64,000 nucleotides of DNA from Eisenibacter elegans DSM 3317 (GCF_000430505.1 NZ_AUMD01000021.1:64001-128000); one strand, 5' to 3'; positions 8,304 through 63,634 are shown, counted from the stretch's first letter. Translations and numbers: made by a program. Notes: generated from the sequence alone by a model not told the origin.

Positions 8304-8358
8304 GAGCCTCAAGAAAATCAAATCCAGCAAACCCGCCAATCAGGTAAATCTTGGGATA
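8304..8358 (+). repeat. Family-A intergenic repeat, partial copy (second half).
   Basis: The sequence gagcctcaagaaaatcaaatc...aatcaggtaaatcttgggatat matches the consensus tccttgagaatcaagaaaatcaaatctt.tgaatcttggtataa. Confidence 0.5.
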
Positions 8359-8542
8359 TCATACTTTTTTTGACCGCTCGCTCAAAAAGTACAGCCCAAG
8401 GGTTTTGAATGACCTTATTTTTGCATAAATTCGCTGGTAGTTTAAGTTTCGTTTTGCTTGTTGGCGCTAAAACCGCATAACGTTTTGGCAATCAATACTT
8501 AACACACATCAGTACTTAGTGTAAATCTAAACTCTCAAGTAT

Positions 8543-9829
8543 ATGTCTAAATTTGCTGAACTCACCTTAGACGGGAAAACATACCAATTGCCAGTAATTG
8601 TAGGTACTGAGGGAGAGCACGCCATCGATATCACCAAGCTTCGTGATATGACAGGCTATATCACCCTAGATACAGGCTACAAAAACACAGGCTCTACTAC
8701 AAGTGCCGTTACGTTCTTGGACGGAGAACAAGGAATCCTGCACTACCGTGGCTACCCTATCGAGCAATTAGCCGAGAAATCTACATTTTTGGAAGTAGCT
8801 TACCTCTTGATTCACGGGGAGCTACCTACGAAGGAGCAGTTTGAAGTGTTTGAACGCGGCATCCGTCGCCGTACCTTGGTCAATGAGGATATGCGCAAAA
8901 TTTTTGACGGCTTCCCTGTCAATGCACACCCGATGGGCGTAATGGCTGCTCTGGCTTCTGCCTTGGCTACTTTCTACCCTGGCGCGATTGACCCTAACCT
9001 CGACCCTGATGCCATCAACTTACGTATCGCCCGCCTGATTGCCAAAATGCCAACACTGGCCGCTTGGGCGTACAAAAACTCTAACGGACACCCCGTAAAC
9101 TATCCGCAGAACAAGTTCAACTACATCGAGAACTTCTTGTATATGATGTTCAGCCTGCCGGTAGAAGAGTATACCCCAGACCCAGTGGTGGTAGATGCGC
9201 TAGACAAGCTGCTGATCCTGCATGCCGATCACGAGCAAAACTGCTCTGCTTCAACAGTACGCTTGGTAGGTTCTTCACAAGTAAGCTTGTACTCTGCCGT
9301 ATCAGGTGGTATCAGCTCACTATGGGGCCCTCTACACGGCGGAGCTAACCAAGAGGTGCTCGAAATGTTGGAGGCCATTCACCAAGATGGTGGCAACGTA
9401 GATAAGTTTATCGAAAAGGCCAAAGACAAAAATAGCGGCTTCCGCCTAATGGGCTTCGGACACCGTGTGTACAAAAACTTCGACCCCCGCGCCAAAATCA
9501 TCAAAGTAGCCTGCGACAATGTATTGAACAAGCTAGGAGTAAATGATCCCTTGCTCGAAATTGCTAAAAAACTCGAAGAGCGCGCCCTCAATGACCCCTA
9601 CTTCGTAGAGAAAAAGCTTTATCCGAACGTAGACTTCTATTCAGGCATTATCTACAAAGCCATTGGTATTCCGACCAATATGTTTACGGTAATGTTTGCG
9701 CTTGGCCGCCTACCAGGCTGGATTGCGCAGTGGCTCGAAATGCGCACTGACAAGCAGCCTATCGGTCGCCCTCGTCAGATTTACACTGGGCATACCAAGC
9801 GTGATTATGTTCCGATGGAGCAACGCTAG
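8543..9829 (+). CDS. gltA: Citrate synthase.
   Basis: It carries the GFGHRVYKNFDPRA signature. At 428 aa it is a full-length type II citrate synthase. Confidence 0.95.
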   Translation: MSKFAELTLDGKTYQLPVIVGTEGEHAIDITKLRDMTGYITLDTGYKNTGSTTSAVTFLDGEQGILHYRGYPIEQLAEKSTFLEVAYLLIHGELPTKEQFEVFERGIRRRTLVNEDMRKIFDGFPVNAHPMGVMAALASALATFYPGAIDPNLDPDAINLRIARLIAKMPTLAAWAYKNSNGHPVNYPQNKFNYIENFLYMMFSLPVEEYTPDPVVVDALDKLLILHADHEQNCSASTVRLVGSSQVSLYSAVSGGISSLWGPLHGGANQEVLEMLEAIHQDGGNVDKFIEKAKDKNSGFRLMGFGHRVYKNFDPRAKIIKVACDNVLNKLGVNDPLLEIAKKLEERALNDPYFVEKKLYPNVDFYSGIIYKAIGIPTNMFTVMFALGRLPGWIAQWLEMRTDKQPIGRPRQIYTGHTKRDYVPMEQR

Positions 9830-9857
9830 TTGTCTGATACATTAATTTTTCCCGTAC

Positions 9858-9896
9858 AAACCGCCCCGCAAGCTTTTGCGCCGGCGGTTTTTTTCT
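9858..9896 (+). terminator. Rho-independent terminator after gltA.
   Basis: The hairpin is aaaccgcc(ccgcaagcttttgcgcc)ggcggttt followed by a T-run (ttttct). Confidence 0.6.
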
Positions 9897-10209
9897 AAAA
9901 TAGCTATACCAAAACCAGACTCAATAGGCCATAATGGTACACATTGGACATATTGACACAAAAATTTCACTCTAGCAAGCTTTTTGTACAAATAGAATAG
10001 GTATGTGTGCCTATTTTATTTTTTTGATAGATATTTTTGAAGTTATCCAAGAAATTCGCTCAAAACCAAAGCTCGGCTAGCTGAGTAATTTGCTGTATTT
10101 TGACTCAAAATCTTTGCATCTATTGGAGATTTACGTATTTTCGCCATTGATTACCACACGAGAACTAATCGTTAAACCCTCTTAAATTTCAATTACACAC
10201 TACATTGCT

Positions 10210-11031
10210 ATGAAAAAACTACTATTTGCAGCAGCCCTCTTCTTCGCTACTTCAGCCACTGTATGGGCGCAAGGCATCGAACTAGGCATCCGCGCTGGCG
10301 GTACTTTTACCAGCGGCAGAACTGAGCTGCCAGCCGCTCAAGGAGTTCAGGTACTGGCTCCTAACCCACTTCCTTTTGGTATCCCCGCACTTAATAACAG
10401 TGGTAATGGGGCAGGCACTGGTTTTGTAGCCGGTGTTTATGGACGTTTAACACTCCCCTTGGGTTTCTTTGTTCAGGCTGAGGTGGACTATGTAAGAATC
10501 CAATTAAACCAAAAAGTAGATGCGCCTTTTGCGTTTACCACTGTCGTACCTGTACAGGGTGTAGGCAATGTAGCCAGTGAAATTCGATTTGCAGGAGTAG
10601 AATCTACTACTAATGCAGCCGGTTTCAATATTCCTTTGCACTTCGGTAAAAGCTTTGCCGGTGGATTGGTACGTGCCTACTTAGGCCCTAATTTTCTGTT
10701 TTTGAGCAGCGCGGAGCAAAAAGCAGATTATGAATATGTTGGAGCTACTGGTGCTCTAGCTGCCCAAAATAATCAATTACAATTAGCTTTTAGCGAAACT
10801 CGTACAGACGATCTTACACAACCTACATTGGACCCCAACCGTCAGGTCTTGAGCTTCATCGTAGGCGTTGAGGTAGGTGTAGGTGTCAACTTACCTGTAG
10901 GTGGTTTGGGTGTAGACTTGCGCTATAGCGTGCCAGCCATCACGGGTGTATACGAAAACAAAGACATCAAAGGCTTCTTGGGCATCACATCGCTCACTGT
11001 AAGCAAGCGTCTTTTCAAGCTTGGTATGTAA
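10210..11031 (+). CDS. Outer-membrane beta-barrel protein, hypothetical.
   Basis: It has the signal peptide MKKLLFAAALFFATSATVWAQ, alternating-hydrophobic beta-strand composition, and an aromatic C-terminal region. Confidence 0.5.
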   Translation: MKKLLFAAALFFATSATVWAQGIELGIRAGGTFTSGRTELPAAQGVQVLAPNPLPFGIPALNNSGNGAGTGFVAGVYGRLTLPLGFFVQAEVDYVRIQLNQKVDAPFAFTTVVPVQGVGNVASEIRFAGVESTTNAAGFNIPLHFGKSFAGGLVRAYLGPNFLFLSSAEQKADYEYVGATGALAAQNNQLQLAFSETRTDDLTQPTLDPNRQVLSFIVGVEVGVGVNLPVGGLGVDLRYSVPAITGVYENKDIKGFLGITSLTVSKRLFKLGM

Positions 11032-11067
11032 GCGAGCGATAACGCTAGTAATACAAACAACCATACA

Positions 11068-11096
11068 AAGCACCCCTTGGGGGTGCTTTGTTGCGT
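11068..11096 (+). terminator. Putative rho-independent terminator.
   Basis: The hairpin is aagcacccc ttg ggggtgctt followed by tgttgcgtt. Confidence 0.45.
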
Positions 11097-11317
11097 TAAA
11101 AAAATAGTAACAAAAACGTGCCAAATCAGTTCAAAGACAAAGAAGCGTAGGCTTATGGAGGAAACACTCAAAAAAAGCCTTCGAGGTATTGTTTGAACGC
11201 GGAGTTTTTTATCTTTGGTAAAAATAAATTTGCAAGGTTTTAGCGGGAAGGTATCGATAGGTGGCCGCATCGCCCGCAAAGCTATGCTAAACCTACACCC
11301 ATTAAATAGATAGCACT

Positions 11318-12004
11318 ATGCAGATGCCCATGGAGGAAAACTCTTGGTTGTATATGGAGCTGAACAAGGTGTCGCCACACTATCTCGACATCTTGTGGGC
11401 AGATGGATGGCGGCATTTTGGCAGCTTTTTTTTCCGGGATAAGTTTGGGTTTCATCGCGGTCAGAAAGTCCCTATCTTGCCGCTGCGTATCAATCTCCAC
11501 AAGTTCCGTTTTTCTAAGAGCCAACAAAAGCTGCTCAAACGACAAGCCGCCAGCGAAGTACTGATACGGACAGCACATATTGATGACGCTAAATACGAAA
11601 TGTTTTTCAAACACATTCATCGGTTTGAAGACAATGTCCCCGATTCTATCCACGATTTCTTGGGCCAAGACCCCTCACAAATCCCAGCCCCGATGTTGGA
11701 GTGTTGTTTGTTGAGGGAAGGGCGGATGTATGCAGTCAGCTTTTTTGATAAGGGCAACAAGGCCAGCTCTAGTGTATACGCTATGTTTGACCCGGCCTAT
11801 GGCCAGCTCAGCCCCGGCTTACACACACTCTTGGCCGAGATAGAGTTTTCCCTTGCCCATCAAATGGATTATGTCTACCTAGGGTATGCGTACCGTGAGT
11901 CTTCACATTATGACTACAAAAAACGCTTCTATGGCCTAGAATTTTATGACTGGAATGGCAAATGGCACGATTATCCACGCCTTACTGGAGAAGATGAAGC
12001 ATAA
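11318..12004 (+). CDS. bpt: Arginyl-tRNA--protein transferase family (bacterial Bpt, Asp/Glu leucyltransferase-like).
   Basis: It is 228 aa with an N-terminal ATE_N-like segment (WRHFG, FFRD) and a C-terminal YLGY...YK..F motif. Confidence 0.55.
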   Translation: MQMPMEENSWLYMELNKVSPHYLDILWADGWRHFGSFFFRDKFGFHRGQKVPILPLRINLHKFRFSKSQQKLLKRQAASEVLIRTAHIDDAKYEMFFKHIHRFEDNVPDSIHDFLGQDPSQIPAPMLECCLLREGRMYAVSFFDKGNKASSSVYAMFDPAYGQLSPGLHTLLAEIEFSLAHQMDYVYLGYAYRESSHYDYKKRFYGLEFYDWNGKWHDYPRLTGEDEA

Positions 12005-12008
12005 TAGG

Positions 12009-12106
12009 CCCAATCAAAACTGGTTTGGGAAATGTATTTGAAAATCCTTGAGACCCAAGAAAATTAACCCTTACAAACCCTCAAATCAAGTGAATCTTGG
12101 TATAAA
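12009..12106 (+). repeat. Family-A intergenic repeat, full copy.
   Basis: The sequence is cccaatcaaaactggtttgggaaatgtatttgaaaatccttgagacccaagaaaatt...caaatcaagtgaatcttggtataaaa. It begins 4 bp after the bpt stop. Confidence 0.7.
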
Positions 12107-12189
12107 ATCTAGGCAAAAGCTTGGATAGTTCATTAGAACTCTGTAATATTGCAATCGCTTTTGGAAACACCTGATTTTCGAAAGCCTCC

Positions 12190-12266
12190 GGACCCATAGC
12201 TCAGTCGGTTAGAGCATCTGACTCATAATCAGAGGGTCGCTGGTTCGAGCCCAGCTGGGTCCACCA
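12190..12266 (+). tRNA. tRNA with a CAT anticodon, either Met elongator-type or Ile2 (lysidine).
   Basis: A cloverleaf can be drawn on ggacccatagctcagtcggttagagcatctgactCATaatcagagggtcgctggttcgagcccagctgggtccacca. The G1-C72 pair argues against an initiator tRNA. The anticodon stem-loop resembles tRNA-Ile(CAU). Confidence 0.85.
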
Positions 12267-12293
12267 AGCTGTTAGCCAAACAGACTAATACAA

Positions 12294-12380
12294 ATGCCTC
12301 AAACAATACTACATACTTCAGGAAGTTGGTGGCGCGGTCAAGACCTGACTGCTGCCGAAAGACCTGCGTATGTACGGTGA
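12294..12380 (+). CDS. trpL: Putative trp leader peptide, 28 aa, with tandem Trp codons.
   Basis: The ORF ATG...TGA encodes MPQTILHTSGSWWRGQDLTAAERPAYVR, with TGG TGG at 12327-12332. A hairpin and an intrinsic terminator follow immediately, just upstream of trpE. Confidence 0.45.
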   Translation: MPQTILHTSGSWWRGQDLTAAERPAYVR

Positions 12381-12431
12381 GGAAAGCAGCACACCGACAG
12401 GTGTGTTTGTGTACTCCCAAAAACTTACAAA

Positions 12432-12460
12432 GCTCATTGCCTCGGCAGTGAGCTTTTTTT
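12432..12460 (+). terminator. Intrinsic terminator (attenuator) in the trpE leader.
   Basis: The 10-bp stem is gctcattgcc / ggcagtgagc (one G-U pair) with a 2-nt loop, followed by T7. It lies 64 nt upstream of the trpE ATG. Confidence 0.65.
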
Positions 12461-12523
12461 GTTGTCCAAACTTGATTACAGCTTCCCCAAAACACTTCTT
12501 ATCACCTATTTCTACCCAACACA

Positions 12524-13945
12524 ATGCTCCCACGCTACCAACTCCAAACCCAACACAAACGCTTGCTGGCTGACACACTGACGCCGGTGAGTATCTATCT
12601 CAAGGTGCGCGACAAGTTTCCCAATGCCATCTTGCTCGAAAGCTCGGACTACCACGGAGCCGAAAACACCTTTTCCTATATTTGCTTCGCACCAATGGCA
12701 GGCTTTAGTCTCAGCCAAGGAAAGGTTACGTATAGTTACGCCAATGGCCAAAATATCCAGCGTCAGCTAACACAACCCCAAGAGGCTATCGGGGCTTTGC
12801 AAACTTTTTTGGACAGCTTTGAGGCCGAAAAGCTGCCCTTCCATTTCATCACCCAGGGGGTGTTTGGCTATACGACATACGATGCTGTCCAGTATTTTGA
12901 AGAAGTTTCGATTCAGCGCCCAAGCAATGCCGACACTCACATTCCGGAGATGCGTTATCACCTCTACGGCTATGTAATTGCCATCAACCACTTCAAAAAC
13001 GAGCTATATCTCTTTGAGCATAGCTGCCCGGAGCTGCCCGGGGTTACCAATGGGTTAGAGGTCATCGAGGCGCTCCTACACAACAAAAATGTACCTGCCT
13101 ACAGCTTCAGCTGTGTTGGCGAAGAACAGGCCAATATGGACGATGCCCACTTTCTGAAGATGATTGCTCAGGGGCAACAACACTGTAAGCGGGGCGATGT
13201 GTTTCAGATAGTGCTCTCTAGGCGCTTTTCGCAAGCTTTCAAAGGAGACGAGTTTAATGTGTACCGAGCGCTGCGCTCCATCAACCCCTCGCCCTACTTG
13301 TTTTATTTTGACTATGGTAGCTTCAAGATTTTTGGCTCTTCGCCCGAAGCGCAGCTGGTGGTCAAAGGGCAAAAGGCCGAGATACACCCCATCGCGGGGA
13401 CGTTCAAACGTACCGGCAACGACGAGTCCGACGCAGAGCTAGCCCGCCTACTCGCCGCCGATGAAAAAGAAAACGCTGAGCACGTGATGCTCGTAGACTT
13501 AGCCCGCAACGACCTCAGCCGCAATGGCAGTCAGGTACAGGTCGAGACCTTCAAAGAAATCCAGTATTACTCACACCTCATCCACTTGGTGTCGAAGGTA
13601 ACGGCACATATCCCACCACAAACAGCGGCCTTACAGTTATTTGCCGATACTTTTCCCGCCGGCACGCTCTCCGGCGCTCCCAAACACCGAGCCCTGACCC
13701 TGATAAACCGCTACGAGCCTTCGAACCGAGGGTATTATGGCGGCGCTATTGGCTTTATGAGCTTCGAGGGAGAGCTCAACCACGCTATTATGATTCGTTC
13801 ATTCTTGAGCCAAGGCAACCGGCTGCATTATCAGGCCGGCGCGGGGGTTGTTTCTAAGTCTGTTCCTGAGAATGAGCTAGAAGAAGTGCATAACAAGCTT
13901 CGCGCCCTGCGTACTGCCCTTCAAGAAGCGCAAAATATCCGCTAA
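12524..13945 (+). CDS. trpE: Anthranilate synthase component I.
   Basis: It has the chorismate-binding enzyme fold (LVDLARNDLSR, GAIGF), is 473 aa, and is followed by a glutamine amidotransferase gene. The Trp-codon leader upstream supports TrpE over PabB. Confidence 0.8.
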   Translation: MLPRYQLQTQHKRLLADTLTPVSIYLKVRDKFPNAILLESSDYHGAENTFSYICFAPMAGFSLSQGKVTYSYANGQNIQRQLTQPQEAIGALQTFLDSFEAEKLPFHFITQGVFGYTTYDAVQYFEEVSIQRPSNADTHIPEMRYHLYGYVIAINHFKNELYLFEHSCPELPGVTNGLEVIEALLHNKNVPAYSFSCVGEEQANMDDAHFLKMIAQGQQHCKRGDVFQIVLSRRFSQAFKGDEFNVYRALRSINPSPYLFYFDYGSFKIFGSSPEAQLVVKGQKAEIHPIAGTFKRTGNDESDAELARLLAADEKENAEHVMLVDLARNDLSRNGSQVQVETFKEIQYYSHLIHLVSKVTAHIPPQTAALQLFADTFPAGTLSGAPKHRALTLINRYEPSNRGYYGGAIGFMSFEGELNHAIMIRSFLSQGNRLHYQAGAGVVSKSVPENELEEVHNKLRALRTALQEAQNIR

Positions 13946-13963
13946 TCCCTTTGAGAAATCAAT

Positions 13964-14530
13964 ATGAAAATTTTAGTACTCGACAACTACGACTCTTTTG
14001 TGTACAATCTCGTACATCTTTTGCGCGAACTAGGGCATAGCCCTGAGGTGTTCCGCAACAACAAACTGCCCTTGGAGGCAGTGGCAGCTTATGATAAAAT
14101 CCTGCTTTCGCCGGGGCCGGGCATCCCCTCCGAAGCAGGGTTGATGCCGCAAATCATCGAAGCGTATGCTGCTCAGAAAAGCATCTTGGGCGTATGCCTA
14201 GGCCATCAGGCCATCGGAGAGGCGTTTGGTGCCCAACTTCACAATTTGCCCGAAGTCTTGCATGGCATCAGTTCTACGATGCACATCACAGATACTTCAG
14301 AGCCGCTTTTTGCCGGCTTGCCTGAGCAACTCTCCATCGGCCACTATCATTCTTGGGTTGTAGAAGCAGGAAGTCTACCCGAAAGCCTGCGCATCACCGC
14401 AACGGATGAGCGCGGCCACGTAATGGCCTTGGCTCATACCCGATATGATGTGCGTGGCGTGCAATTTCACCCTGAGTCGGTGATGACCGCCCACGGACGA
14501 GAAATGCTGGCCAATTGGTTGGGAATCTAA
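13964..14530 (+). CDS. trpG: Anthranilate synthase component II (glutamine amidotransferase).
   Basis: It has the class I GATase motifs GVCLGHQAIG and GVQFHPES and is 188 aa. Confidence 0.8.
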   Translation: MKILVLDNYDSFVYNLVHLLRELGHSPEVFRNNKLPLEAVAAYDKILLSPGPGIPSEAGLMPQIIEAYAAQKSILGVCLGHQAIGEAFGAQLHNLPEVLHGISSTMHITDTSEPLFAGLPEQLSIGHYHSWVVEAGSLPESLRITATDERGHVMALAHTRYDVRGVQFHPESVMTAHGREMLANWLGI

Positions 14531-14544
14531 GCGCCTCTCCCACT

Positions 14545-14657
14545 ATTGGCTCATTTATATCAAGACGCACGAGATTTAAGGATGTACAGGGTTTGATTTT
14601 CTTGATTATCAAGGATTTTCAGCACACATATTTCCCAAACCAATTGTGGTTGAGTAT
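14545..14657 (-). repeat. Family-A intergenic repeat, full copy in reverse orientation.
   Basis: The sequence is ttatatcaagacgcacgagattt...gattttcttgattatcaaggattttc...atttcccaaaccaattgtggttgagtata. It starts 15 bp after the trpG stop. Confidence 0.7.
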
Positions 14658-14685
14658 AAAAAAACCCACGGGTGAAGCCGTGGGT
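14658..14685 (-). terminator. Putative terminator for the minus-strand genes.
   Basis: The hairpin is cccacgg gtgaagc ccgtggg preceded by A7 on the plus strand, which gives a T7 tail on the minus strand. Confidence 0.5.
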
Positions 14686-14761
14686 TAAAAAATAAGATTT
14701 CTTACTATCCTGAAGCCAGCGTTATTTCATAAACTGGTGTCGGCTTAGGGTTATTGATGGT

Positions 14762-15053
14762 TTATTTTTTTCGCAGTTGTTGTATGGTCTCTATTGCCAA
14801 CCCGGTGAGTTGTTGGATAATATGCTCATCCAATCCTTCTCTAATCGCTTTTTGGGCAGTCTGAACTATAGTGTTTACCTGATTTTTCTTTGTCGCGGTA
14901 GTTTAGGGCTTTTACAGATGGCAACTCATTGGCAAGCAGGTTATTGAGGAAATCAGTCAGTAAATCTTTGTTGCGTTCGGTATCAAAGATACGCTTGAAT
15001 CCGAAATCAGTAAAGAGGTCAATACAGCGCCCTATGGATGAAGCGTGAGCCAT
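14762..15053 (-). pseudogene. Degraded remnant of an Rpn-family (PD-(D/E)XK nuclease-family) transposase or recombination-promoting nuclease.
   Basis: The 70-aa ORF starts MAHASSIGRCIDLFTDFGFKRIFDTERNKDLLTDFLNNLL, matching the conserved N-terminus of Rpn/YhgA-like proteins (YIDPLTDFGFK.LFG...NKDLLIDFLN). After a frameshift, a +1 frame encodes NTIVQTAQKAIREGLDEHIIQQLTGLAIETIQQLRKK, which resembles the Rpn C-terminal helix-turn-helix tail. The catalytic core of about 200 aa is missing. Confidence 0.45.
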
Positions 15054-15093
15054 TGTGTGGGAGGTTAGGGAGATGTAGGGTTTGGGCAGTAGT

Positions 15094-15462
15094 TTAGGTT
15101 TTTGACCAATTGAGCAGTTCTCGCTGCCTTCGGGGTAGCTTGTCTACTACAAGTTCGTAGGAGTGTCGTATCCAATGTCGTATTTCATCGTCGGTGAGTT
15201 CTCCATTCATCAGGATGGTATTCCAATGTCGTTTGCTCATGTGATAACCCGGCTGTATAGCCTCATACATTTCGCGTAGTTCAAGGGCTTTTTCGGGATC
15301 ACATTTGAGGTTGATACTCTCAAATTCGTTGAGGTCAGTTGCGGCAAACATTTTATCAAACACCTTGAAAACGAGGGTATTCTCATCAAAAGGGAGGCTT
15401 TCACTTGTTTCGGGAAAGGCTAGGCAGTAGTTTCTAAACTCTTCTATATTCATAAGCGGCAA
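15094..15462 (-). CDS. MmcQ/YjbR family DNA-binding protein.
   Basis: This 122-aa protein has FDENTLVFKV, KCDPE and HMSKRHWNTI, which match the MmcQ/YjbR family. Confidence 0.65.
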   Translation of the reverse strand: MPLMNIEEFRNYCLAFPETSESLPFDENTLVFKVFDKMFAATDLNEFESINLKCDPEKALELREMYEAIQPGYHMSKRHWNTILMNGELTDDEIRHWIRHSYELVVDKLPRRQRELLNWSKT

Positions 15463-15761
15463 GCAACTTGGGTTAGGGAGAAATCGTCGGAAGTAGAAAG
15501 ATACAAAAATTTGAGCTAAACCCCATCCGCCTCCCCTCAGATGCCAGCCAAACGAGCCGGCAATGGCTATGTTGAGAGTCCAGATATATTCAAAAACACC
15601 TTATTTATTACGTATAGAGTTACTTAGGTGCTTACAAGGGAATTCAAAAGTACGGTATTCGGCAAGCCGAGTATCGCGGTCTAAATCTCGAAACAAATCG
15701 TTTTGGGACGAGTTATCAAACAAGTATTTGTCTGAAACCCAAACCGCTAAACAATAGATTT

Positions 15762-16181
15762 TTGGAAACATTAAGCAATAGAGATTCTGTGGTGAAAGCA
15801 TTAAGACCCCAATTACCTATAGAAGTGCCTAGCGCAGAGCATGCGTTGGCGCATTTCCAGACCAATGTTTTGCGCCCCATCCTCAAGTTTCAGCACGAGG
15901 TGCTGATGCAATATTTTGAGGCGCATCTCAAACGGACGCATACTGATTTGGCCAAAATACCCCTCAGCAGCCGTATAACTTATATTACACAGATGTTAAA
16001 CCGTAATCAACCCCTGAAGTATATGTTGTTTGGGATGATTTGGGGGATGCTGACCGAAGAAGAGGCGTTGTTTTATGAGCAAAACCATCAAGAACTGAAC
16101 AAGCGCCTGACCCAGTTTCTGGCCAAGCGTTTGTGTGATGGTTGGTGTGAGTCATATCCGGAGGGATGCCTCTTAGCATAG
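15762..16181 (+). CDS. Hypothetical protein.
   Basis: It is a 139-aa ORF with coding-like composition, convergent with pheA and overlapping it by 9 nt. Confidence 0.4.
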   Translation: METLSNRDSVVKALRPQLPIEVPSAEHALAHFQTNVLRPILKFQHEVLMQYFEAHLKRTHTDLAKIPLSSRITYITQMLNRNQPLKYMLFGMIWGMLTEEEALFYEQNHQELNKRLTQFLAKRLCDGWCESYPEGCLLA

Positions 16182-17249: not shown

Positions 17250-17515
17250 TAGCTTCTCTCTATCAAATATTTGGCTACAAATTGCTTCAAAGTAAGACTT
17301 ACCCAAAGGCAAGCGCAACAAAGTGTAGCAAAAAACGAGGGCGTGATTCAAATTAACCGTCGTGTTTGTGCTAATACAAGTAACAATGGTACTTTATAGA
17401 GTTTTGCTTGTCAGGTTCATTTACCAAAAGCAAGAGCATAGCGGACGGAAGTTGAACGAAAAAGTGTAGCTTTGTTGTTGATTAATGATTGTTTACCCAC
17501 AAACTATTAATAACT

Positions 17516-17953
17516 ATGATTAAAGCAGCTATCCATACGGCCTACGGAGTAATGGAAGTGGCATTTTTTGAAAAAGATGCTCCTAAGACAGTAGAAAACT
17601 TTGTAAAGCTTTCTGAATCAGGATTTTATGATGAACTGACTTTCCATCGTGTTATTCCCAACTTTGTTGTGCAGGCTGGATGCCCCGAGGGTACAGGAAG
17701 GGGAGGCCCGGGCTATCGTATTGACTGTGAGCTTACTGGCGACAACCAATACCACGACCGTGGCGTGCTTTCGATGGCTCACGCAGGGCGCAACACCGGA
17801 GGGTCGCAGTTTTTTATCTGCCATAACCGCCAAAACACACAGCACCTTGATCGAAAACATACTGTTTTTGGCAAGGTAGTAGATGGAATCGATATTGTTG
17901 ACCAGATTAAGCAAGGCGACAAAATCGAGAAAATTGTGATTGAGCGCAGCTAA
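17516..17953 (+). CDS. ppiB: Peptidyl-prolyl cis-trans isomerase, cyclophilin type.
   Basis: It has FHRVIPNFVVQAG, GGSQFFI and HTVFGKVV. The start was chosen at MIKAAIHT; the ORF begins at 17489. Confidence 0.85.
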   Translation: MIKAAIHTAYGVMEVAFFEKDAPKTVENFVKLSESGFYDELTFHRVIPNFVVQAGCPEGTGRGGPGYRIDCELTGDNQYHDRGVLSMAHAGRNTGGSQFFICHNRQNTQHLDRKHTVFGKVVDGIDIVDQIKQGDKIEKIVIERS

Positions 17954-51613: not shown

Positions 51614-51619
51614 GAAAGG

Positions 51620-54098: not shown

Positions 54099-54329
54099 AA
54101 TCTCATTTTTTAGGTGAATGAATTGACTAGTCCTACAAAATTACGCAGCCAACTAGGATTTTGACGAATGCCGGCTGATTTTTTATTGCCAATACCAAGC
54201 CTCACGTGCTTTGGCTGACATCAACAGCAGAAAATTCAGATAAGCAACAAAAAAACAGCAGAACATTCCTCAACTCCAAAGCTTTCTTGTAAATTAGCCA
54301 CTAGCTCTGATGACTAAACGCATTCACCT

Positions 54330-56825: not shown

Positions 56826-56875
56826 TATCGGCTTGGCGAAGAATCCACTTGGCAATCTCCAAGTGGATTACCGCT

Positions 56876-56960
56876 CACACCACTGGACATTTTTGGAAAA
56901 GTAGCTCGGAGTTCTAGCTCCGAGACAAATTAAGACCTCATTAATCACATAGTTTTGTTT
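56876..56960 (+). mobile_element. Family-B element, partial copy 3 (left TIR plus internal hairpin, no right TIR).
   Basis: The sequence cacaccactggacatttttggaaaagtagctcggagttctagctccgagacaaattaagacctcat aligns to copy 1 at 43460-43525. Confidence 0.5.
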
Positions 56961-56987
56961 GGGGAAAGCCACGCCTGAGGAGCCTAT

Positions 56988-58325
56988 TCAGGGCTGTTTT
57001 TTAAGGGTTTTGGTAATGATTTTGTCATTTAAGAAGCGGTAGCGCACCTTTCCAATGACTAGCCCCTGTTTGGTTTCGAGTGTGTTGAGGTCATACCAGT
57101 CGTTTTCCATTGTATGGAGCGAGCCCTTGGTGCCGTAGGCAATGGCGATATAGTCGGGTTGGATGCCTTGGTCAGCGTCGCAGAGGATGACATGTACTTG
57201 CTGGTTGTGGGTGCGACACACACGGATCAGCTCGGGCAGGAGCTGTATATCGCGGGCGGTAGACTTGCTGTCAGCAATGAAGATGATATTGGCCGCTTCG
57301 GGGTGTTTGCGGGCGGCATAGAGCAGGGCTTCGAGGTCGTTTTCGGGCAAGTCTCCTCCGCTACCGGCTTTGGCGGCGCGTGCCATTGTCTCCACAATGT
57401 CTTGGCTGCTCATCGAGGGGCTGCGGTGTAGCCCTCCTGTTCGGCCAATGACCTTTTCGGCAGCAGACTTGCTGTCGCCATCATTGAAAAATAGCAGCAT
57501 CCGCACGGATTCTCGCGAGGGCTCGTTTTTCCGAAACCATACCAAGAGCTGTGCGCCATAGTGGTACATACTGGCTGTCCAATCGACGACAATTACATTT
57601 TTGGGCCATTGTTGCCAATTGCGGCCTACAGCCTTGAAGACGGTAGAGTCGGGCGTTACATAATCTTGGGCGACGATTTGGTAGATATTTTGAGGCTGGC
57701 GATAGTCCATATTGGGCGCATCTTCTATGGGTAGTAGGCGCTCGGGGATGGGGATAGGATCGTCATAAGTGGTGGTATTGTTCCCACCCCCTCCGTCGTT
57801 GTCGGGTTGGCGGTCGGGCTGTTGGGTGGTCAGGCCTTGGTCGGTGGGGGTTTGGGTATCGGGTAGGGCGGTGAAAAACACCACGATACCGTGAAACATC
57901 GCCTGCGCATCGGGGTAGGTTTGGGCGTAGGTCTGGGCGATGTAACGCCACGGAATGTTGGTGTCAATCAACTGGGGTAGGTATTTGGCTACTTCGTAAA
58001 TGCGGCTGCGGTTTAGCTCGTCGAAGTTGCGCCCCTTGGGGAAATCAGTATAGACGAGATGTACCGAATCTATTTGTTTGTTTTTGAGGGTTTGTAGGTC
58101 TTCGGCACTGACGATGAGGTGATTGTCGAAGGACATCTGCAGCGCACGATGAGGCGTTTGGGCAAAGGTGTAGCGAGTTGTTTGTTGACGTAAGGCTTGT
58201 TGGGCCAGGGTTTCGGCAACAGGGTTCTTTTGCTGGGCGTGGAGCGGCCACACAAGGAGGCTGAGCCACCACAAAAGGCTAAGGCTGCAGAAAGAGGTAT
58301 GCGTGCGTACACTGCTTAGGGACAT
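56988..58325 (-). CDS. Hypothetical secreted protein with a vWA-like domain.
   Basis: It has the signal peptide MSLSSVRTHTSFCSLSLLWWLSLLVWPLHAQ and a VIVVDWTASM...DGDS region consistent with a von Willebrand A / MIDAS-like fold. The ORF extends to 58505. Confidence 0.4.
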   Translation of the reverse strand: MSLSSVRTHTSFCSLSLLWWLSLLVWPLHAQQKNPVAETLAQQALRQQTTRYTFAQTPHRALQMSFDNHLIVSAEDLQTLKNKQIDSVHLVYTDFPKGRNFDELNRSRIYEVAKYLPQLIDTNIPWRYIAQTYAQTYPDAQAMFHGIVVFFTALPDTQTPTDQGLTTQQPDRQPDNDGGGGNNTTTYDDPIPIPERLLPIEDAPNMDYRQPQNIYQIVAQDYVTPDSTVFKAVGRNWQQWPKNVIVVDWTASMYHYGAQLLVWFRKNEPSRESVRMLLFFNDGDSKSAAEKVIGRTGGLHRSPSMSSQDIVETMARAAKAGSGGDLPENDLEALLYAARKHPEAANIIFIADSKSTARDIQLLPELIRVCRTHNQQVHVILCDADQGIQPDYIAIAYGTKGSLHTMENDWYDLNTLETKQGLVIGKVRYRFLNDKIITKTLKKQP

Positions 58326-58364
58326 CTTAGCGCGAGAGCGCAAAGTATGCGGGTGTAGCCCACG

Positions 58365-58436
58365 AGCAGTACCCCACAGCACAAAGTGCGAGGAGTATGG
58401 CCGTCCAACCCGACCCCGAAGGGGGAAGTCCCAAAA
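58365..58436 (-). repeat. Family-C conserved intergenic element, copy 2.
   Basis: The sequence gagcagtaccccacagcacaaagtgcgaggagtatggccgtccaacccgaccccgaagggggaagtcccaaa lies 40 nt upstream of the vWA-like gene start. Confidence 0.5.
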
Positions 58437-58497
58437 AGAAAATCTGGTGTGTGTCATCGGTTTTTTGCTTTCAGTACTTTGTTGCGGTGCGTGTTTT

Positions 58498-58583
58498 ATA
58501 CCCAATCAAAATTGGTTTGGGAGATATATCTGTTGAAAATCCTTGGGAATCAAGAAAATCAAATCTTATGAATTTTGGTATAA
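58498..58583 (+). repeat. Family-A repeat, full copy overlapping the 3' end of murI.
   Basis: The sequence is atacccaatcaaaattggtttgggagatatat...gaaaatccttgggaatcaagaaaatcaaatcttatgaattttggtataa. The last 8 murI codons plus its stop are encoded inside the element. Confidence 0.7.
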
Positions 58584-59413
58584 CCCAAGGGGTCTAAGTC
58601 TACCGACTGTATGCTAGGAACGTGGCCTAGGGGCAATAATTGCCATTGTTCCAAAAAAAGGGCAAGCCCCTGGGCGCTCCCTGTAGTCAAGAACCGGTAT
58701 TGCGGGAGTGTTGTTGAGGAGGTGGCCAGATTTTGGGTGTGGAGGCATTGTTGCGTTCGCTTGGCGACCGCCCCGGCGGGGTCGATGATTTGTACGGGCT
58801 GAGTGCCGATGATACGCTCCAAGAGAGGCATCAGGAAGGGGTAATGTGTACAGCCCAAAACCAACTGATCGATGCCGGCGGCCAACATCGGCTCGACATA
58901 GCGGCGGAGCAAGGCTTCGGCCTCGGGTGTGTGGAGGTGGCCTTGTTCTACGATTTCGACCAGGCCTTCGCCTACTTGGGTATGGACGGTGATATGCTGA
59001 GCATAAGCTTGCAGGGTTTGGTGGAAGTGCCGCCCTTTCAGCGTGCCGGCGGTGGCCAACACCCCAATATGACCGCTACGGGTTTGGAGGGCAGCAGGCT
59101 TGACCGCCGGCTCCATCCCCACAAACTGTACCTGTGGGTATTGCTGCCGCAAGGCCGTAATGGCCGCCGCCGTAGCCGTGTTGCAAGCTACTACAATGAG
59201 CTTGGCTCCCTGTGAGAGTAGGGTTTCGGTCAGCTGCCGGGAGAGTTGTACAATCTCTTCAGCCGGGCGTGTGCCATAGGGGCAGTGGGCACTATCGGCC
59301 ATATAGATAAAAGACTCTTGGGGCAATAGGGCGGCTAAATGTCGCCAAACCGACAGCCCGCCCAACCCTGAATCAAACACCCCAATGGGGCCTTGTGAAT
59401 GAAGCATCTCCAT
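58559..59413 (-). CDS. murI: Glutamate racemase.
   Basis: It has VFDSGLGGLSV and IVVACNTA and is 284 aa. Confidence 0.9.
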   Translation of the reverse strand: MEMLHSQGPIGVFDSGLGGLSVWRHLAALLPQESFIYMADSAHCPYGTRPAEEIVQLSRQLTETLLSQGAKLIVVACNTATAAAITALRQQYPQVQFVGMEPAVKPAALQTRSGHIGVLATAGTLKGRHFHQTLQAYAQHITVHTQVGEGLVEIVEQGHLHTPEAEALLRRYVEPMLAAGIDQLVLGCTHYPFLMPLLERIIGTQPVQIIDPAGAVAKRTQQCLHTQNLATSSTTLPQYRFLTTGSAQGLALFLEQWQLLPLGHVPSIQSVDLDPLGYTKIHKI

Positions 59414-59617
59414 AAAGCAAATGAGCTAGGCAACAAAGGTACACAAGGTGGGATAAAAGGCAGGGCTTTTGCCCCAAAAATGAAGTGAGACACGCACAAG
59501 CCCAAAAGCTCGGATTTTGACTGTTACGCAGTATTTCGGTACGGAAGCCCTGACATTGATTGTTAAATCTGCTTTTTTGCTGTATTTTTACAAGGCCGAA
59601 TATCCCTCCATTATTGA

Positions 59618-61126
59618 ATGAAACTATTTACTGCCGCCCAAATACGCACCTGGGATGCGTATACCATAACACAAGAGCCTATTGCTTCTATCGCCTTGAT
59701 GGAGCGGGCTTCGGCGGCCTTGGTGCGTTGGTGGGTAACACACTACAACACGGCGAACCCGGTGTTGGTAGTAGCGGGGATGGGCAACAATGGCGGCGAC
59801 GGGCTGGCTGTGGCCCGAATGTTGCGCCAACGAGGGTATGCCGTATCGGTATGGATTGTCGCACACAGTGCGCAGGGTAGCCCCGACTGGCAAATCAATG
59901 CACGGCGCTGGCAGGAGCTTGATGCGCTTCACTGGGTATACCAAGTAACTGATTTACCAACACCTCCGCCTCACACCTTGCTAGTAGATGCCTTGCTAGG
60001 CTCCGGGCTGAACCGCCCCGCCGAGGGGCTGTTGGCTGATACCATCCGCTGGATGAACGAGAGCGGGCTGCCCATCATCTCGGTCGATATCGCCTCAGGA
60101 TTACAGGCCGAAGGACTGGGAAAAACAGCTGAGGCTATCATAAGACCACAACATACATTGACGCTGCAAACACCTAAATTGGCGATGTTATTGCCTGATA
60201 ATGAATTGTTTGTAGGCAAATGGCACTGCCTCGACATAGGGTTGCACCCTGAGTATAGTTGCCAAACAGAAAGCCCATATCATGTATTGACCGACGCGGA
60301 TATTGCTCCGTGGTGGCACAAACGGGCACTATTTTCGCACAAGGGTACTTATGGCCATGCACTGTTGATAGCAGGCAGCAAAGGCAAGATAGGCGCAGCG
60401 GCCTTGGCAGCGGAGGCCTGCCTCCGCGCAGGAGTTGGGTTGTTGACAGTACACCTGCCCGCTTGTGGCTTGTTACCCCTACAAACACAATTGCCAGAGG
60501 TAATGATTAGCCCTGATGAGGCCGAAGACTGTTGGCAACACCCTCCCGATACCCAAGTCTACAAGGCCATTGCCATAGGCCCAGGGTTGGGCCAAGCTGC
60601 TGAAACTTTAAACGCCTTGGAGGCGTTTCTGTCAAAACCGAACTTGCCACCGCTCGTGCTCGATGCCGATGCGCTGAATTTATTGGCACAAAAACCAACG
60701 CTCTTAACCCAATTACCACCCTACAGTATTTTGACCCCACACCCTAAGGAGTTTGAGCGCCTCGCAGGAAAAAGTACGGATAGTTTGGAACGACTCAACC
60801 GTTTGTGCTATTTTGCAAAAACATACCAAGCGATTGTACTACTCAAAGGCCGGCATACTGCCATTGCTACGCCCCAAGGGCAGCTTTGGTTCAACAACAC
60901 CGGCAACCCGGGAATGGCTACCGCCGGAAGCGGAGATGTGCTCACAGGTATCATTACGGCGCTTTTGGCACAGGGTTATTCCCCGATGAGGGCCGCCTGC
61001 TTAGGGGTTTATGTTCACGGAGCCGCAGGCGATGCCGCCGCACAACAACTAGGACAGGCTGCTTTGCTGGCTTCAGATATTATCAGCGCCACTGCTAGGG
61101 TATTTAAACAAGCATATAATGGATAA
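59618..61126 (+). CDS. nnr: Bifunctional NAD(P)H-hydrate repair enzyme Nnr (epimerase plus ADP-dependent dehydratase).
   Basis: It has a YjeF-N domain (VVAGMGNNGGDGL) and a YjeF-C domain (GSGDVLTG). Length is 502 aa. Confidence 0.9.
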   Translation: MKLFTAAQIRTWDAYTITQEPIASIALMERASAALVRWWVTHYNTANPVLVVAGMGNNGGDGLAVARMLRQRGYAVSVWIVAHSAQGSPDWQINARRWQELDALHWVYQVTDLPTPPPHTLLVDALLGSGLNRPAEGLLADTIRWMNESGLPIISVDIASGLQAEGLGKTAEAIIRPQHTLTLQTPKLAMLLPDNELFVGKWHCLDIGLHPEYSCQTESPYHVLTDADIAPWWHKRALFSHKGTYGHALLIAGSKGKIGAAALAAEACLRAGVGLLTVHLPACGLLPLQTQLPEVMISPDEAEDCWQHPPDTQVYKAIAIGPGLGQAAETLNALEAFLSKPNLPPLVLDADALNLLAQKPTLLTQLPPYSILTPHPKEFERLAGKSTDSLERLNRLCYFAKTYQAIVLLKGRHTAIATPQGQLWFNNTGNPGMATAGSGDVLTGIITALLAQGYSPMRAACLGVYVHGAAGDAAAQQLGQAALLASDIISATARVFKQAYNG

Positions 61127-61676
61127 CATTAGCATCAAAAAAACCATCGAGACCCCCGAAGTCTTGTTTGACTTCAACCAAGGGCTTTTTGAAATCAAAG
61201 GCGTATCTATCCCCGAAGATGCCGATGATTTTTATCGCCCATTGCTACAAGCACTCGAAATGTATATCGCTCAGTCTGAAAACGCAGATACACGCTTTCG
61301 ACTAGAGTTTAATTATTTCAATACCAATACTTCGGCTATTTTGATGAATATGCTCAAAATGCTAGAAGAATTTTACCTCAACGGCCATAGCGTCATGGTA
61401 GAGTGGCGCGCAGAGGAAGAAGATGAGGATATGTATGAACTGGGTGAGTATTTTAGCTCTTTGACCAAGCTGCCTTTTGAGCTAGTCGTAACGAATCTGC
61501 CCGACAACCTCAATGAGGATGAATTTTATCCTGACGACGATGAGGAGGAAGAAGACGTACGCTTTGTCTCTACAGTAGACACGGATAGTGAAATTGATTT
61601 GGAGGAAGATGAAGATGTTTTTGATGATGATGATGACCCAGATACACTCAACGACTCCCCCCTACCAAACGCCTAA
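61119..61676 (+). CDS. DUF1987 (SiaC-like) paralog with a long acidic C-terminal tail.
   Basis: It has MDNISIKKTIETPEVLFDFNQGLFEIKGVSIPEDADDFYRPLLQALEMY and FNYFNTNTS and aligns to the 18113-18490 protein. The C-terminal roughly 60 aa are rich in D and E. Its start overlaps the nnr stop by 8 nt. Confidence 0.65.
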   Translation: MDNISIKKTIETPEVLFDFNQGLFEIKGVSIPEDADDFYRPLLQALEMYIAQSENADTRFRLEFNYFNTNTSAILMNMLKMLEEFYLNGHSVMVEWRAEEEDEDMYELGEYFSSLTKLPFELVVTNLPDNLNEDEFYPDDDEEEEDVRFVSTVDTDSEIDLEEDEDVFDDDDDPDTLNDSPLPNA

Positions 61677-61701
61677 TATTCTCGATACAACACCATAACC
61701 A

Positions 61702-62487
61702 ATGCCCCCTTTAGCAACGCCACCCGACGCATCTTTAGCGCCCTTTGACCGCCTACTGGCGATTATGAACGACCTGCGCACACACTGCCCTTGGGACAAA
61801 GTCCAGACCAAGGAGAGTCTCCGCCGCTTGACCATCGAGGAGGCGTATGAGTTGTCTTCGGCTATTGTGGCCGATGACTGGGAGGAGGTCAAAAAAGAAT
61901 TGGGCGACCTGCTGTTACACATTGTTTTTTATGCCAAAATAGCTTCCGAAAGCCAAGGCTTTGGGATTGAGGAAGTCATCACACAACTGTGTGAGAAACT
62001 TGTACGCCGCCATCCACACATCTATGCGGAAGTCGAAGCCGGCGACGAAGGCCAAGTACGTCAACGCTGGGAAGCGCTCAAGCTCAAAGAAGGCAACCGC
62101 TCGGTGCTCAGTGGAGTGCCCGAAGCGCTACCCGCCCTCGTCAAAGCTTTCCGATTACAAGAAAAAGCCCGTGGAGTAGGTTTCGATTGGGATACCCCGG
62201 AGCAAGTCTGGGCCAAGGTCGAAGAAGAGGCCCGAGAGTTTGCCGAAGTACGACACGACCCCGACCAAGCCGAAGCCGAAATGGGCGACTGGCTCTTTGC
62301 ACTCATCAACTATGCCCGCTTTGCCAATATAGACCCCGAAGCGGCGCTCGAACGTACCAACCAAAAATTTATCCGACGTTTCCAATATCTTGAAACACAG
62401 GCGCAGGCCTTGGGCAAACAACTCCCTGATATGACCTTGGCCGAAATGGATGTTTTTTGGAATGAAGCCAAGGCCAAAGGCCTCTAA
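61702..62487 (+). CDS. mazG: Nucleoside triphosphate pyrophosphohydrolase MazG.
   Basis: It has two tandem MazG domains (EEAYEL, EELGDLLLHIVFYA, EFAE...EMGDWLFALINYAR) and is 261 aa. Confidence 0.85.
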   Translation: MPPLATPPDASLAPFDRLLAIMNDLRTHCPWDKVQTKESLRRLTIEEAYELSSAIVADDWEEVKKELGDLLLHIVFYAKIASESQGFGIEEVITQLCEKLVRRHPHIYAEVEAGDEGQVRQRWEALKLKEGNRSVLSGVPEALPALVKAFRLQEKARGVGFDWDTPEQVWAKVEEEAREFAEVRHDPDQAEAEMGDWLFALINYARFANIDPEAALERTNQKFIRRFQYLETQAQALGKQLPDMTLAEMDVFWNEAKAKGL

Positions 62488-62520
62488 AATAGCGCATCAC
62501 TAATACCTAATTTAATCTCA

Positions 62521-63543
62521 ATGAAAGTCTTTGTGCGGTTTATACTCAGCCTCCTGCTCGTCGGGATGCTGTCTGTTACTACTTTTTATTTTTGGGGAAG
62601 CGCCGGCAAGCTTTCAGAGGCCGAATTGACCCAGACTTATGTGTTGCCCAATGCACAAACACCCACCCAAAGCGACAGTCTGGTATTGGTCTCTTTCAAT
62701 ATTGGCTACCTTGCAGGGATGACCAACAACTTGCCACTTCCTCGTACTCAGGCTTTTGTAGATAGCAATATGCTGCACGTAAAGTCGATATTCAAGCACT
62801 TAAAGCCTGATGTGGTGGGGTATCAGGAGATAGATTATGGCGGTCGGAGGGCTTTTGATAACAACCAATCAGAGGTAATCGCCACACGGCTAGGCTTTGG
62901 CTACCGTGCCGACGCAGTCAATTGGGATAAAAACTATGTACCCTTCCCCTATGCGGTCAATCCGGCCTTGCATTTTGGCAGGGTGCTTTCCGGGCAAAGT
63001 GTACACAGTCGTTACCCGATTTTGTCACACAAGCGCATTGCTTTGCAGAAGGTCAAAAATGCACCCTTTTACTACAATGCCTTCTACCTTGACCGTTTGG
63101 CACAGGTAGTAGAGCTTCAATATGGGCGAGATACGCTGGTGTTGATTAATGTACACCTAGAGGCGTTTGACGGCCCTGCTCGCGAAGCTCAGACGGAAGA
63201 GTTGTTGAACATCTACCGCAGCTATCGCCCAGAGCAGCGTCCGGTGTTGCTCATCGGAGACTTCAATAGCAACGCGCCCACGGAAGCCTATCGACAAAGC
63301 GCTGACTATGAGAGAGTAATAGACCTTATCTTGGCAGAGCCTACATTGGCCTCGGCCTGTGTGCCGGAGCTTTTCAGCCAGCGCGAACAATGCACATACC
63401 CTGCCGATAAGCCGGATGTACACATTGACTATATTTTTTATAACCCAAAATTTTGGGAGCTGCGCCAATACCGGGTATTAAACGAAATGCAAACCGCCTC
63501 CGATCACCTACCCATTATGGCCATACTCAAACGCCTCCGGTAA
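62521..63543 (+). CDS. Endonuclease/exonuclease/phosphatase (EEP) family protein, membrane-anchored.
   Basis: It has an N-terminal TM helix and the EEP motifs VVGYQEID, LIGDFNS and SDHLPIMA. Confidence 0.8.
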   Translation: MKVFVRFILSLLLVGMLSVTTFYFWGSAGKLSEAELTQTYVLPNAQTPTQSDSLVLVSFNIGYLAGMTNNLPLPRTQAFVDSNMLHVKSIFKHLKPDVVGYQEIDYGGRRAFDNNQSEVIATRLGFGYRADAVNWDKNYVPFPYAVNPALHFGRVLSGQSVHSRYPILSHKRIALQKVKNAPFYYNAFYLDRLAQVVELQYGRDTLVLINVHLEAFDGPAREAQTEELLNIYRSYRPEQRPVLLIGDFNSNAPTEAYRQSADYERVIDLILAEPTLASACVPELFSQREQCTYPADKPDVHIDYIFYNPKFWELRQYRVLNEMQTASDHLPIMAILKRLR

Positions 63544-63548
63544 TTTTT

Positions 63549-63634
63549 ATACCTACCCAAAATTGGATTGGGAAATCTACGCATGGAGAATCCTTGATAA
63601 TCAAGGAAATCAAATCTTGTGAATCTTGGTATAA
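63549..63634 (+). repeat. Family-A intergenic repeat, full copy.
   Basis: The sequence is atacctacccaaaattggattgggaaatctacgcatggagaatccttgataatcaaggaaatcaaatcttgtgaatcttggtataa. It starts 6 bp after the EEP gene stop. Confidence 0.7.

Follow-up and report, generated by a model that had tools for sequence, protein, structure and literature searches.

The Correia elements of Neisseria (CREE/NEMIS) are about 100-155 bp long, carry 26-bp terminal inverted repeats (TIRs) with a documented TA duplication, and occur in hundreds of near-identical copies. They have known effects on promoters and on RNase III processing, and they contain a site for integration host factor (IHF). Here we describe family A, a short non-coding repeat in a 64,000-nt stretch (GC 48%), hereafter the window, of the genome of Eisenibacter elegans DSM 3317, a gliding member of the Cytophagales, and compare it with these elements and with other small bacterial repeats. 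Family A shares with the Correia elements the TATA... ends, AT-rich TA-containing targets near genes, internal deletion variants and altered gene ends, and the Correia IHF site offers a precedent for conserved internal blocks such as those of family A. It differs in that its inverted termini measure only 9-10 bp, its probable target duplication is 4 bp (TATA), and it is known from sequence alone.

BOX elements of Streptococcus pneumoniae are built of modules of 45-59 nt and form a stable long hairpin. Like family A they are modular, non-coding and intergenic, with a variable number of internal units, but they have no TATA bracket and no sequence similarity to it. Repetitive extragenic palindromes (REPs) of gamma-proteobacteria are GC-rich stable palindromes of 20-40 bp with GTAG/CGTC heads, linked to REP-associated tyrosine transposases (RAYTs) (PMC3733652). 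REPs and bacterial interspersed mosaic elements (BIMEs) resemble family A as dense extragenic repeats located preferentially past gene 3′ ends. However, family A is about 100 bp long, has a GC content of 27-38% and folds weakly, and no GTAG/CGTC head was seen in its alignment. An earlier note on this DNA had called the repeat REP/BIME-like or MITE-like (for miniature inverted-repeat transposable element). Size, base composition, weak folding and the missing head rule out REP/BIME membership, and the likeness to MITEs stands.

BrickBuilt, a MITE of Porphyromonas gingivalis, is found at 49-591 nt from coding sequences and contains a clean 23-nt minisatellite with numerous units; bidirectional promoter activity has been measured for it (PMC4596501). 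It has in common with family A a host among the Bacteroidota, small inverted ends, variable tandem units, intergenic location and a narrow host range. In family A, by contrast, the RAATC units are degenerate and 8-10 nt long, a single 17-18-nt unit may be there or missing, and copies often abut stop codons. MITECca01 of the Cytophagales endosymbiont Cardinium derives from IS982, is ~240 bp long and is present in 169 copies (PMC9769881). Both MITECca01 and family A are small, non-coding and lineage-restricted, have TIRs and Cytophagales hosts, and occur as dispersed, mostly intergenic copies. They differ in that the parent insertion sequence (IS) of MITECca01 is known and family A is shorter (88-105 bp) and, in E. 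elegans, old and decayed, with no sequence relationship established between them. Family A is a genuine repeat family of an ordinary bacterial type that had no description in the E. elegans lineage. It is probably a MITE-type element, lineage-restricted and for the most part decayed, whose targets are AT-rich sites containing TATA. It joins the many lineage-specific MITE-like families known in bacteria, and its practical consequences are modest.

Copies, ends and distribution of family A

The earlier note had listed 11 copies. Exact-seed repeat finding on the window, run in both orientations, already linked these sites to each other in either orientation, and an nhmmer profile built on six full copies recovered all 11 of them. 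Ten had E-values from 6e-29 to 3e-7, and the fragment at 46.5 kb had E = 5e-4 with this profile and 0.011 with a second profile built on 13 sequences. Both profiles detected two further copies (copies 1 and 7 in Table 1), which brings the family to 13 copies of 60-105 nt, all non-coding and all too short for a transposase gene. Since the flanks of the copies are unrelated, they form a dispersed family and not a set of sequences with low-complexity similarity. The claim of a real repeat family holds, with a corrected count, against the chance resemblance that the note had considered. Both termini are kept in eight E. elegans copies, while the others lack one end or are badly degraded. Along the 64 kb the strand order is -,+,+,-,-,-,-,+,+,+,-,+,+ (7 plus and 6 minus, interleaved). 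The E. elegans sequence accessible for counting amounts to 78.7 kb and holds these 13 copies, about one per 6 kb, with no further copy in the 9.5 kb to the right and 5.2 kb to the left of the window (14.7 kb). Hundreds of copies per genome are an extrapolation from this sampled density.

Similarity between copies stops sharply at (T)TATA-CC(C)AA on the left and TTGG-TATA(A) on the right. The end sequences are CC(C)AAYCMAAATTGG and CC(C)AAYCMAAATTGGTTTGGG on the left and AATCTTGG on the right. Every two-ended copy has imperfect terminal inverted repeats of 9-10 bp with one unpaired C (TTATACC(C)AA / TTGGTATAA), as the earlier note had proposed with less precise boundaries; the inverted part shrinks to CC(C)AA/TTGG (4-5 bp) if TATA is counted as a target duplication. 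The long form measures 101-105 nt and the short form, which lacks one 17-18-nt unit, 88 nt.

Inside the left-hand TATA lies an imperfect palindrome, CCCAAnCA-loop-TGGTTTGGG, followed by the conserved block TGGTTTGGGAAAT, a variable spacer of ~10 nt and the sequence GAAAA-TCCTTGA-NNN-TCAAGGA, which contains a 7-3-7 palindrome. The right half consists of the degenerate RAATC units and ends in TTGG-TATA(A). In the consensus of the second host described below, a metagenome-assembled genome (MAG), RAATC occurs seven times at a spacing of 5-10 nt (mostly 8-10). The internal palindrome, said earlier to be perfect, is so only in copy 13, where it spans 8 bp; in the other E. elegans copies that retain it, 4-6 bp are paired. 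Copy 7 has lost the palindrome and copy 11 both spacer and palindrome; the two deletions have GAAAAT(C)/GGAAAT direct repeats at their borders, as slippage would leave them.

Other genomes were scanned with an exact pattern in one genome per species (185,579 species, with E. elegans itself outside the collection). Only 3 of the 13 window copies fit this pattern, so the scan may have overlooked diverged or low-copy families in other genomes. The scan found a single second host, the MAG 'uncultured Cytophagaceae bacterium SRP141376_co5_355' (CAYZQI01), with eight copies on eight contigs, all with different flanks and at non-orthologous sites; two other genome matches were chance matches to the central palindrome. 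The MAG has a GC content of 38% (36-41% at its family A loci), and the two hosts are not close relatives, as their DUF7935 orthologues are 55% identical. Family A offers a compact marker for horizontal exchange between two Cytophagales lineages of very different GC. A scan of 241 million metagenome records returned only chance or coding matches (six), two scans of viral contigs gave chance matches only, and BLAST against plasmids and phages gave no family A match. A phage vehicle was rejected on the viral-contig and BLAST results.

The closest relatives of E. elegans (FtsH 76-77% identical in amino acids) have no copy in 42 kb around the syntenic FtsH locus. They keep the core gene order BPL-RsfS-FtsH-LUD, and one of them, L029, retains PorP and Metallophos as well. 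In L029 the BPL-PorP spacer is 31 nt long, versus ~100-150 nt in E. elegans, where it holds copy 1. Likewise, 20 kb from relatives of the MAG (82% nucleotide identity) contain no copy.

Two MAG loci deserve separate mention. At L005 an HTH_3 and Phage_pRha gene pair is followed, after 70 nt, by a short-form copy whose spacer resembles those of E. elegans, with a Uma2 nuclease gene close by; the locus is not clearly a prophage. These surroundings may be a mobile or variable region, which hints at a vehicle for transfer between lineages. At L010, as in the window, a copy lies downstream of a DUF7935 gene and antisense to it, 106 nt past the gene in the MAG and past the next gene in E. elegans. 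This shared placement is probably a coincidence, given the density of copies in E. elegans.

Probable target site, proposed mode of spread and position beside genes

TATA stands on both sides of 11 of the 15 two-ended copies, with T favoured outside it on the left and A on the right. The exceptions are TACA/TACA (MAG locus L008), TACA/TAAA (L005, a copy of a different subfamily), TATA/TGTA (the window copy at 21.7 kb) and CATA/TATA (L010). Since TATA is palindromic, it may belong to a 9-10-bp TIR or represent a 4-bp target duplication. The L008 copy favours the duplicated target, because its TACA/TACA is direct and a TIR would need TACA...TGTA. We favour a putative 4-bp duplication of a T-TATA-A target, on thin evidence.

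Family A resembles MITEs in being small and non-coding, in having terminal inverted repeats and sharp ends and in occurring, in either orientation, as dispersed copies with unrelated flanks (13 in the window and 8 in the MAG). We also count in favour of a MITE the younger set of copies in the MAG, the murI frame that runs into copy 12, the short-read contigs that break within copies, the shorter spacer in L029, the absence of the family around the loci of relatives, and a second MITE-like family, family B, that shares intergenic spaces with family A. Family A would then be a non-autonomous DNA transposon whose intact form measures about 88-105 bp and has a core CC(C)AA...TTGG bracketed by TATA, either as a 4-bp target duplication or as a 9-10-bp inverted repeat. 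A transposase encoded outside the window would have mobilised it in trans. It would have spread through the genome of the E. elegans lineage, where the copies aged, became fixed in the three sampled strains and were in part deleted by slippage between the internal GAAAAT(C) repeats, and it would later have spread in the Cytophagaceae MAG of unrelated GC. The CC ends with a 4-bp AT-rich duplication recall IS1380, and the TA targets IS630 and the Correia elements; we take both as leads only.

Several observations weigh against a simple MITE. The case for a target duplication rests essentially on one copy, L008. No transposase and no longer element with the same ends was found in the window or at the ends of the MAG contigs. 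No clean empty site was recovered among the three E. elegans strains or the relatives: intergenic regions of distant relatives that lack family A do not align to the filled sites, and the MAG spacer between Ppx and MoxR is rearranged relative to the 82%-identical relatives, where a SnoaL_2 gene sits, so that no junction is readable. Finally, among the E. elegans copies the termini are no better kept than the average of the element and the internal blocks are far better kept, which is at odds with simple neutral decay, as such decay should affect all regions alike. With neither a parent transposase nor a clean empty site found, mobility is only inferred, and the assignment to MITEs is incomplete.

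Alternatively, family A could be of the REP/REPIN or PATE type, moved as single-stranded DNA by a Y1 transposase (IS200/IS605 or RAYT), inserted 3′ of a TATA-like tetranucleotide without duplication and recognised through subterminal hairpins. Imperfect hairpins do lie by both ends (CCCAAnCA...TGGTTTGGG on the left; CAAG-TGAAT-CTTG on the right of long forms), and a fixed tetranucleotide flanks the left end. However, the strand bias of insertion into the lagging-strand template is not seen along the 64 kb, and we rejected mobilisation of the IS200/IS605 single-strand type on the interleaved orientations. The element also has inverted termini, and it carries one tetranucleotide at either end that in L008 differs in the same way on both sides, in better agreement with duplication. 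In addition, AT-richness, weak folding and the lack of a GTAG/CGTC head are unlike such elements, and the window contains no Y1 transposase or RAYT gene. Thus, we regard this alternative as very unlikely.

All but one of the 13 copies are intergenic. The murI gene ends inside copy 12, which supplies its last 7 codons (YTKIHKI) and its TGA (58559-58583), and beyond the copy the murI frame continues for 10 codons to a TGA in the left flank (KTRTATKY*-like tail), as expected for an insertion into the 3′ end of the gene. Family A enlarges intergenic spacers, and it has altered the end of at least one gene by giving murI a new C-terminus. The distances to the nearest stop codon are 0, 1, 3, 6, 10, 12, 20, 24, 24, 46, 59 and 123 nt, in addition to the murI overlap, so ten copies lie within 24 nt of a stop. 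In six of seven tandem gene pairs the upstream stop is the closer neighbour of the copy and the downstream start the more distant one. Relative to the gene with the nearest stop, five copies are sense and eight antisense. The earlier description of repeats that are all intergenic, just 3′ of stop codons and in either orientation is accurate as to orientation and needs qualifying in its first part for copy 12 and in its second for the copies at 46, 59 and 123 nt. By Pfam, the genes of the window are housekeeping genes only.

Copies in the MAG are also intergenic and lie 39-261 nt from open reading frames (ORFs), so adjacency to stops is not intrinsic to the element. Under the MITE interpretation, the position 3′ of stops would be mainly a matter of survivorship: insertions would be tolerated in a short promoter-free stretch and occasionally in the last codons of a gene, as in murI, and those into coding and promoter DNA would have been removed by selection.

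The closeness of ten copies to a stop and the bias in tandem pairs would also suit a dedicated RNA element of the 3′ untranslated region (3′-UTR), either an intrinsic terminator or a stem-loop that is transcribed together with the gene before it and stabilises the mRNA, as the earlier note had suggested. The eight antisense copies and the distances in the MAG speak against it. We scanned two 20-kb segments for terminators (8001-28000 and 44001-64000, together holding 11 of the 13 copies) and found no copy that contains a GC-rich hairpin with a T-run behind it; copies 4, 7 and 11 have canonical-looking terminators as neighbours. Folding of both strands, a check named in the earlier note, was done for eight copies against shuffled sequence. 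The minimum free energies gave z-scores from -2.65 to +0.91, most within one standard deviation of the shuffles. Covariation was assessed over 14 base pairs of two internal hairpins in an alignment of 16 sequences, with shuffles as control. None of the 14 pairs had a double-sided change, and no measure exceeded the shuffles. The single matched change, from C-G to T-A, lies in the termini of copy 4, where inverted repeats recognised by one transposase would explain it just as well.

An Rfam search, likewise named in the note, matched only a tRNA in the window at the gathering threshold and no repeat copy. At E<=5 no match aligned to any copy; two sub-threshold sRNA matches at the terminator next to copy 4 overlap no more than its last 4 nt. 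We rejected the terminator or 3′-UTR stem-loop as a candidate because orientation is mixed, folding is weak and no T-run, covariation or Rfam match was found; this reading is already largely refuted, and we consider it extremely unlikely.

Age and uneven conservation

Full copies in E. elegans have a mean pairwise identity of 73% (67-81%), copies in the MAG one of 91% (85-94%), and identity between the hosts averages 75%. The homogeneity of the MAG set marks it as the younger one. Judged by these identities, family A is old and decaying in E. elegans and more recently expanded in the MAG. Two further E. elegans strains, represented by a JGI metagenome contig (179 kb) and the Logan assembly SRR35364711, are 99.8% identical to the window over the 13 sites. 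All three strains share the 13 insertions, and no element-sized indel was found among them. Within the copies there are 0 single-nucleotide polymorphisms (SNPs) between strains in 719 element bases, versus 1.5 expected, a comparison with no power.

Family A breaks short-read assemblies of E. elegans, with contigs ending within copies. Two independent assemblies end at the same base of copy 13 (63615), and the Logan contig ends within copy 4 (14621). The 16- to 31-mers that end at these break points occur nowhere else in the window, where no two copies have an exact match longer than 24 nt. Therefore, closer copies are likely to exist elsewhere in the genome.

We compared the six full E. elegans copies region by region. 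The overall pairwise difference is 27.5%, with 22% in the termini and 50% in the spacer, whereas it is 7.7% in TGGTTTGGGAAAT, 4.8% in TCCTTGA and 11% in ATCAAG. The spacer variants fall into groups (ATGTGYGC, GTAT.. and ATAT..). Several source lineages that differ in the spacer, or selection in place, could account for this unevenness.

Selection in place would mean that the repeat is maintained by the host. In this case TGGTTTGGGAAAT, the 7-3-7 palindrome and the phased RAATC units would be exapted as putative sites for a host DNA- or RNA-binding protein, and copies would be kept for nucleoid organisation, for insulating or modulating transcription, or for orientation-independent stabilisation of 3′ ends; spread as a MITE would still be possible. 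Sites for host proteins have precedents in the IHF and gyrase sites of BIMEs and in the IHF site of the Correia elements. The low divergence of the two best-kept blocks and the recurrence of RAATC in the MAG consensus agree with such a role. So do the resemblance of the palindrome to an operator and the persistence of ~100-nt copies to about 27% divergence in a compact genome, fixed in three strains. On the other hand, unevenness can stem from source subfamilies, and the pairwise tests are not independent. The palindrome or one end is missing from copies 1, 7, 8, 9, 10 and 11. The young MAG copies show no significant shortage of changes within the blocks, at low power, and the SNP counts give nothing on which selection could be tested. 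No candidate binding protein is known. We consider exaptation unlikely. If the conservation of the blocks does reflect selection in place, family A would provide a handle on a new DNA- or RNA-binding factor in a poorly studied group.

A more elaborate version appears quite improbable. It would make family A a domesticated, orientation-independent regulatory or nucleoid module, in which TGGTTTGGGAAAT, the palindrome and helically phased RAATC units form a binding platform for a Cytophagales-specific protein, spread by an undescribed transposase that duplicates TATA.

Copy list and neighbouring features

The 13 copies and other features are listed in Table 1. The ends of copy 1 were placed by eye.

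Table 1. Family A copies in the window and features discussed in the text. Positions refer to the window unless a MAG locus is named; E-values are from nhmmer.
Feature	Position	Strand	Form	E-value	Context
Copy 1	3390-3467	-	78-nt deletion variant, both termini (TATA-CCCCAAG...CCTTGG-TATAA); also covered by inverted-repeat matches I21 and I22	0.018-0.02	59 nt 3′ of biotin/lipoate ligase (BPL_LplA_LipB) stop; directly upstream of PorP/SprF gene
Copy 2	8270-8359	+	5′ part degenerate	2e-8 to 3e-11	20 nt past Metallophos gene stop; citrate synthase 184 nt further
Copy 3	12005-12105	+	Long form, 101 nt	3e-24	Directly abuts TAA of bpt (ATE_C); then tRNA
Copy 4	14555-14659	-	Long form, 105 nt	6e-29	24 nt past trpG stop; other end abuts PDDEXK_2 pseudogene terminator
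Copy 5	21736-21840	-	Long form, 105 nt	1.5e-28	1 nt past LRR gene TAA; 89 nt past stop of convergent gene 21930-22793
Copy 6	26826-26919	-	94 nt	6e-22	10 nt past PQQ_2 beta-propeller gene stop; next start 189 nt away
Copy 7	27830-27916	-	Degenerate, without central palindrome; repeat match I7	1e-5	46 nt past pseudouridine synthase stop, terminator-like hairpin between
Copy 8	30650-30721	+	3′ end lost	1.5e-9	24 nt from stop of alpha/beta-hydrolase gene (30746-31735, -)
Copy 9	45614-45705	+	5′ terminus lost	3e-10	12 nt from stop of aat (Leu/Phe-tRNA protein transferase, 45718-46458, -)
Copy 10	46519-46578	+	Short, degenerate (TTATACCGAATCAAAATTGGGTAATGTAT...)	5e-4 / 0.011	6 nt from stop of DsbH-like thioredoxin gene (46585-48639, -)
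Copy 11	51426-51496	-	71 nt, without spacer and palindrome (deletion between GGAAAT repeats)	3e-7	Between convergent RNase Y and Fe-ADH genes; abuts family B repeat
Copy 12	58496-58583	+	Short form, 88 nt	4e-26	Overlaps 3′ end of murI (58559-59413, -; Pfam Asp_Glu_race)
Copy 13	63547-63634	+	Short form, 88 nt	2e-25	3 nt past TAA of endonuclease/exonuclease/phosphatase gene
MAG copy, L005	3513-3592		Short form		Past HTH_3 and Phage_pRha pair (2218-3442)
DUF7935 gene with downstream copy, MAG L010	3559-4337				Copy antisense
DUF7935 gene with downstream copy, window	24634-26919				Copy antisense
tRNA	12190-12263				Rfam match
Terminator	14663-14686	-			Beside copy 4
Terminator	27780-27807				Beside copy 7
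Terminator	51292-51327				Beside copy 11
Family B	43455-43600	+			
Family B	51505-51615	-			Abuts copy 11
Family B	56876-56942		Left half		
GC-rich repeat	52790-52855				Intergenic
GC-rich repeat	58358-58435				Intergenic
PD-(D/E)XK 'transposase' gene	14765-15053	-	Fragmentary; 70-aa ORF 14841-15053		Terminator abuts copy 4
SiaC-family paralogue	18113-19072				
SiaC-family paralogue	61119-61676				

Family B has inverted ends of ~22 nt (CACCACTGGACATTTTTGGAAAAG ... TTTGAAAATGTCCAGTGGTG) and an internal hairpin, CCCACAGTTTTAACTGTGGG. Short-read contigs break inside this family too. A further repeat is GC-rich and ~50-70 nt long (...GCGAGGAGTA..GACCCCGAAGGGGGAAGYCCCAAA); its two copies are 83% identical, lie upstream of the minus-strand Fe-ADH and VWA-like genes and have no Rfam match.

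The gene that abuts copy 4 through its own strong terminator is a fragmentary PD-(D/E)XK 'transposase' (PF12784), annotated as such in RefSeq for its 70-aa ORF. In MAG locus L011 a frameshifted homologue stands 1.6 kb away from the family A copy, and neither the remainder of the window nor any of the other seven MAG loci was found to pair family A with a PD-(D/E)XK gene. A search with the 70-aa fragment for paralogous E. elegans loci returned 3 proteins only. With L011 as the single co-occurrence, we treated the association as a coincidence and rejected this gene as a partner of family A. Finally, the window encodes two paralogous phosphoproteins of the SiaC family, one of them beside a DUF6272 gene. 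Both may form part of partner-switching modules, and neither has a connection with the repeats.

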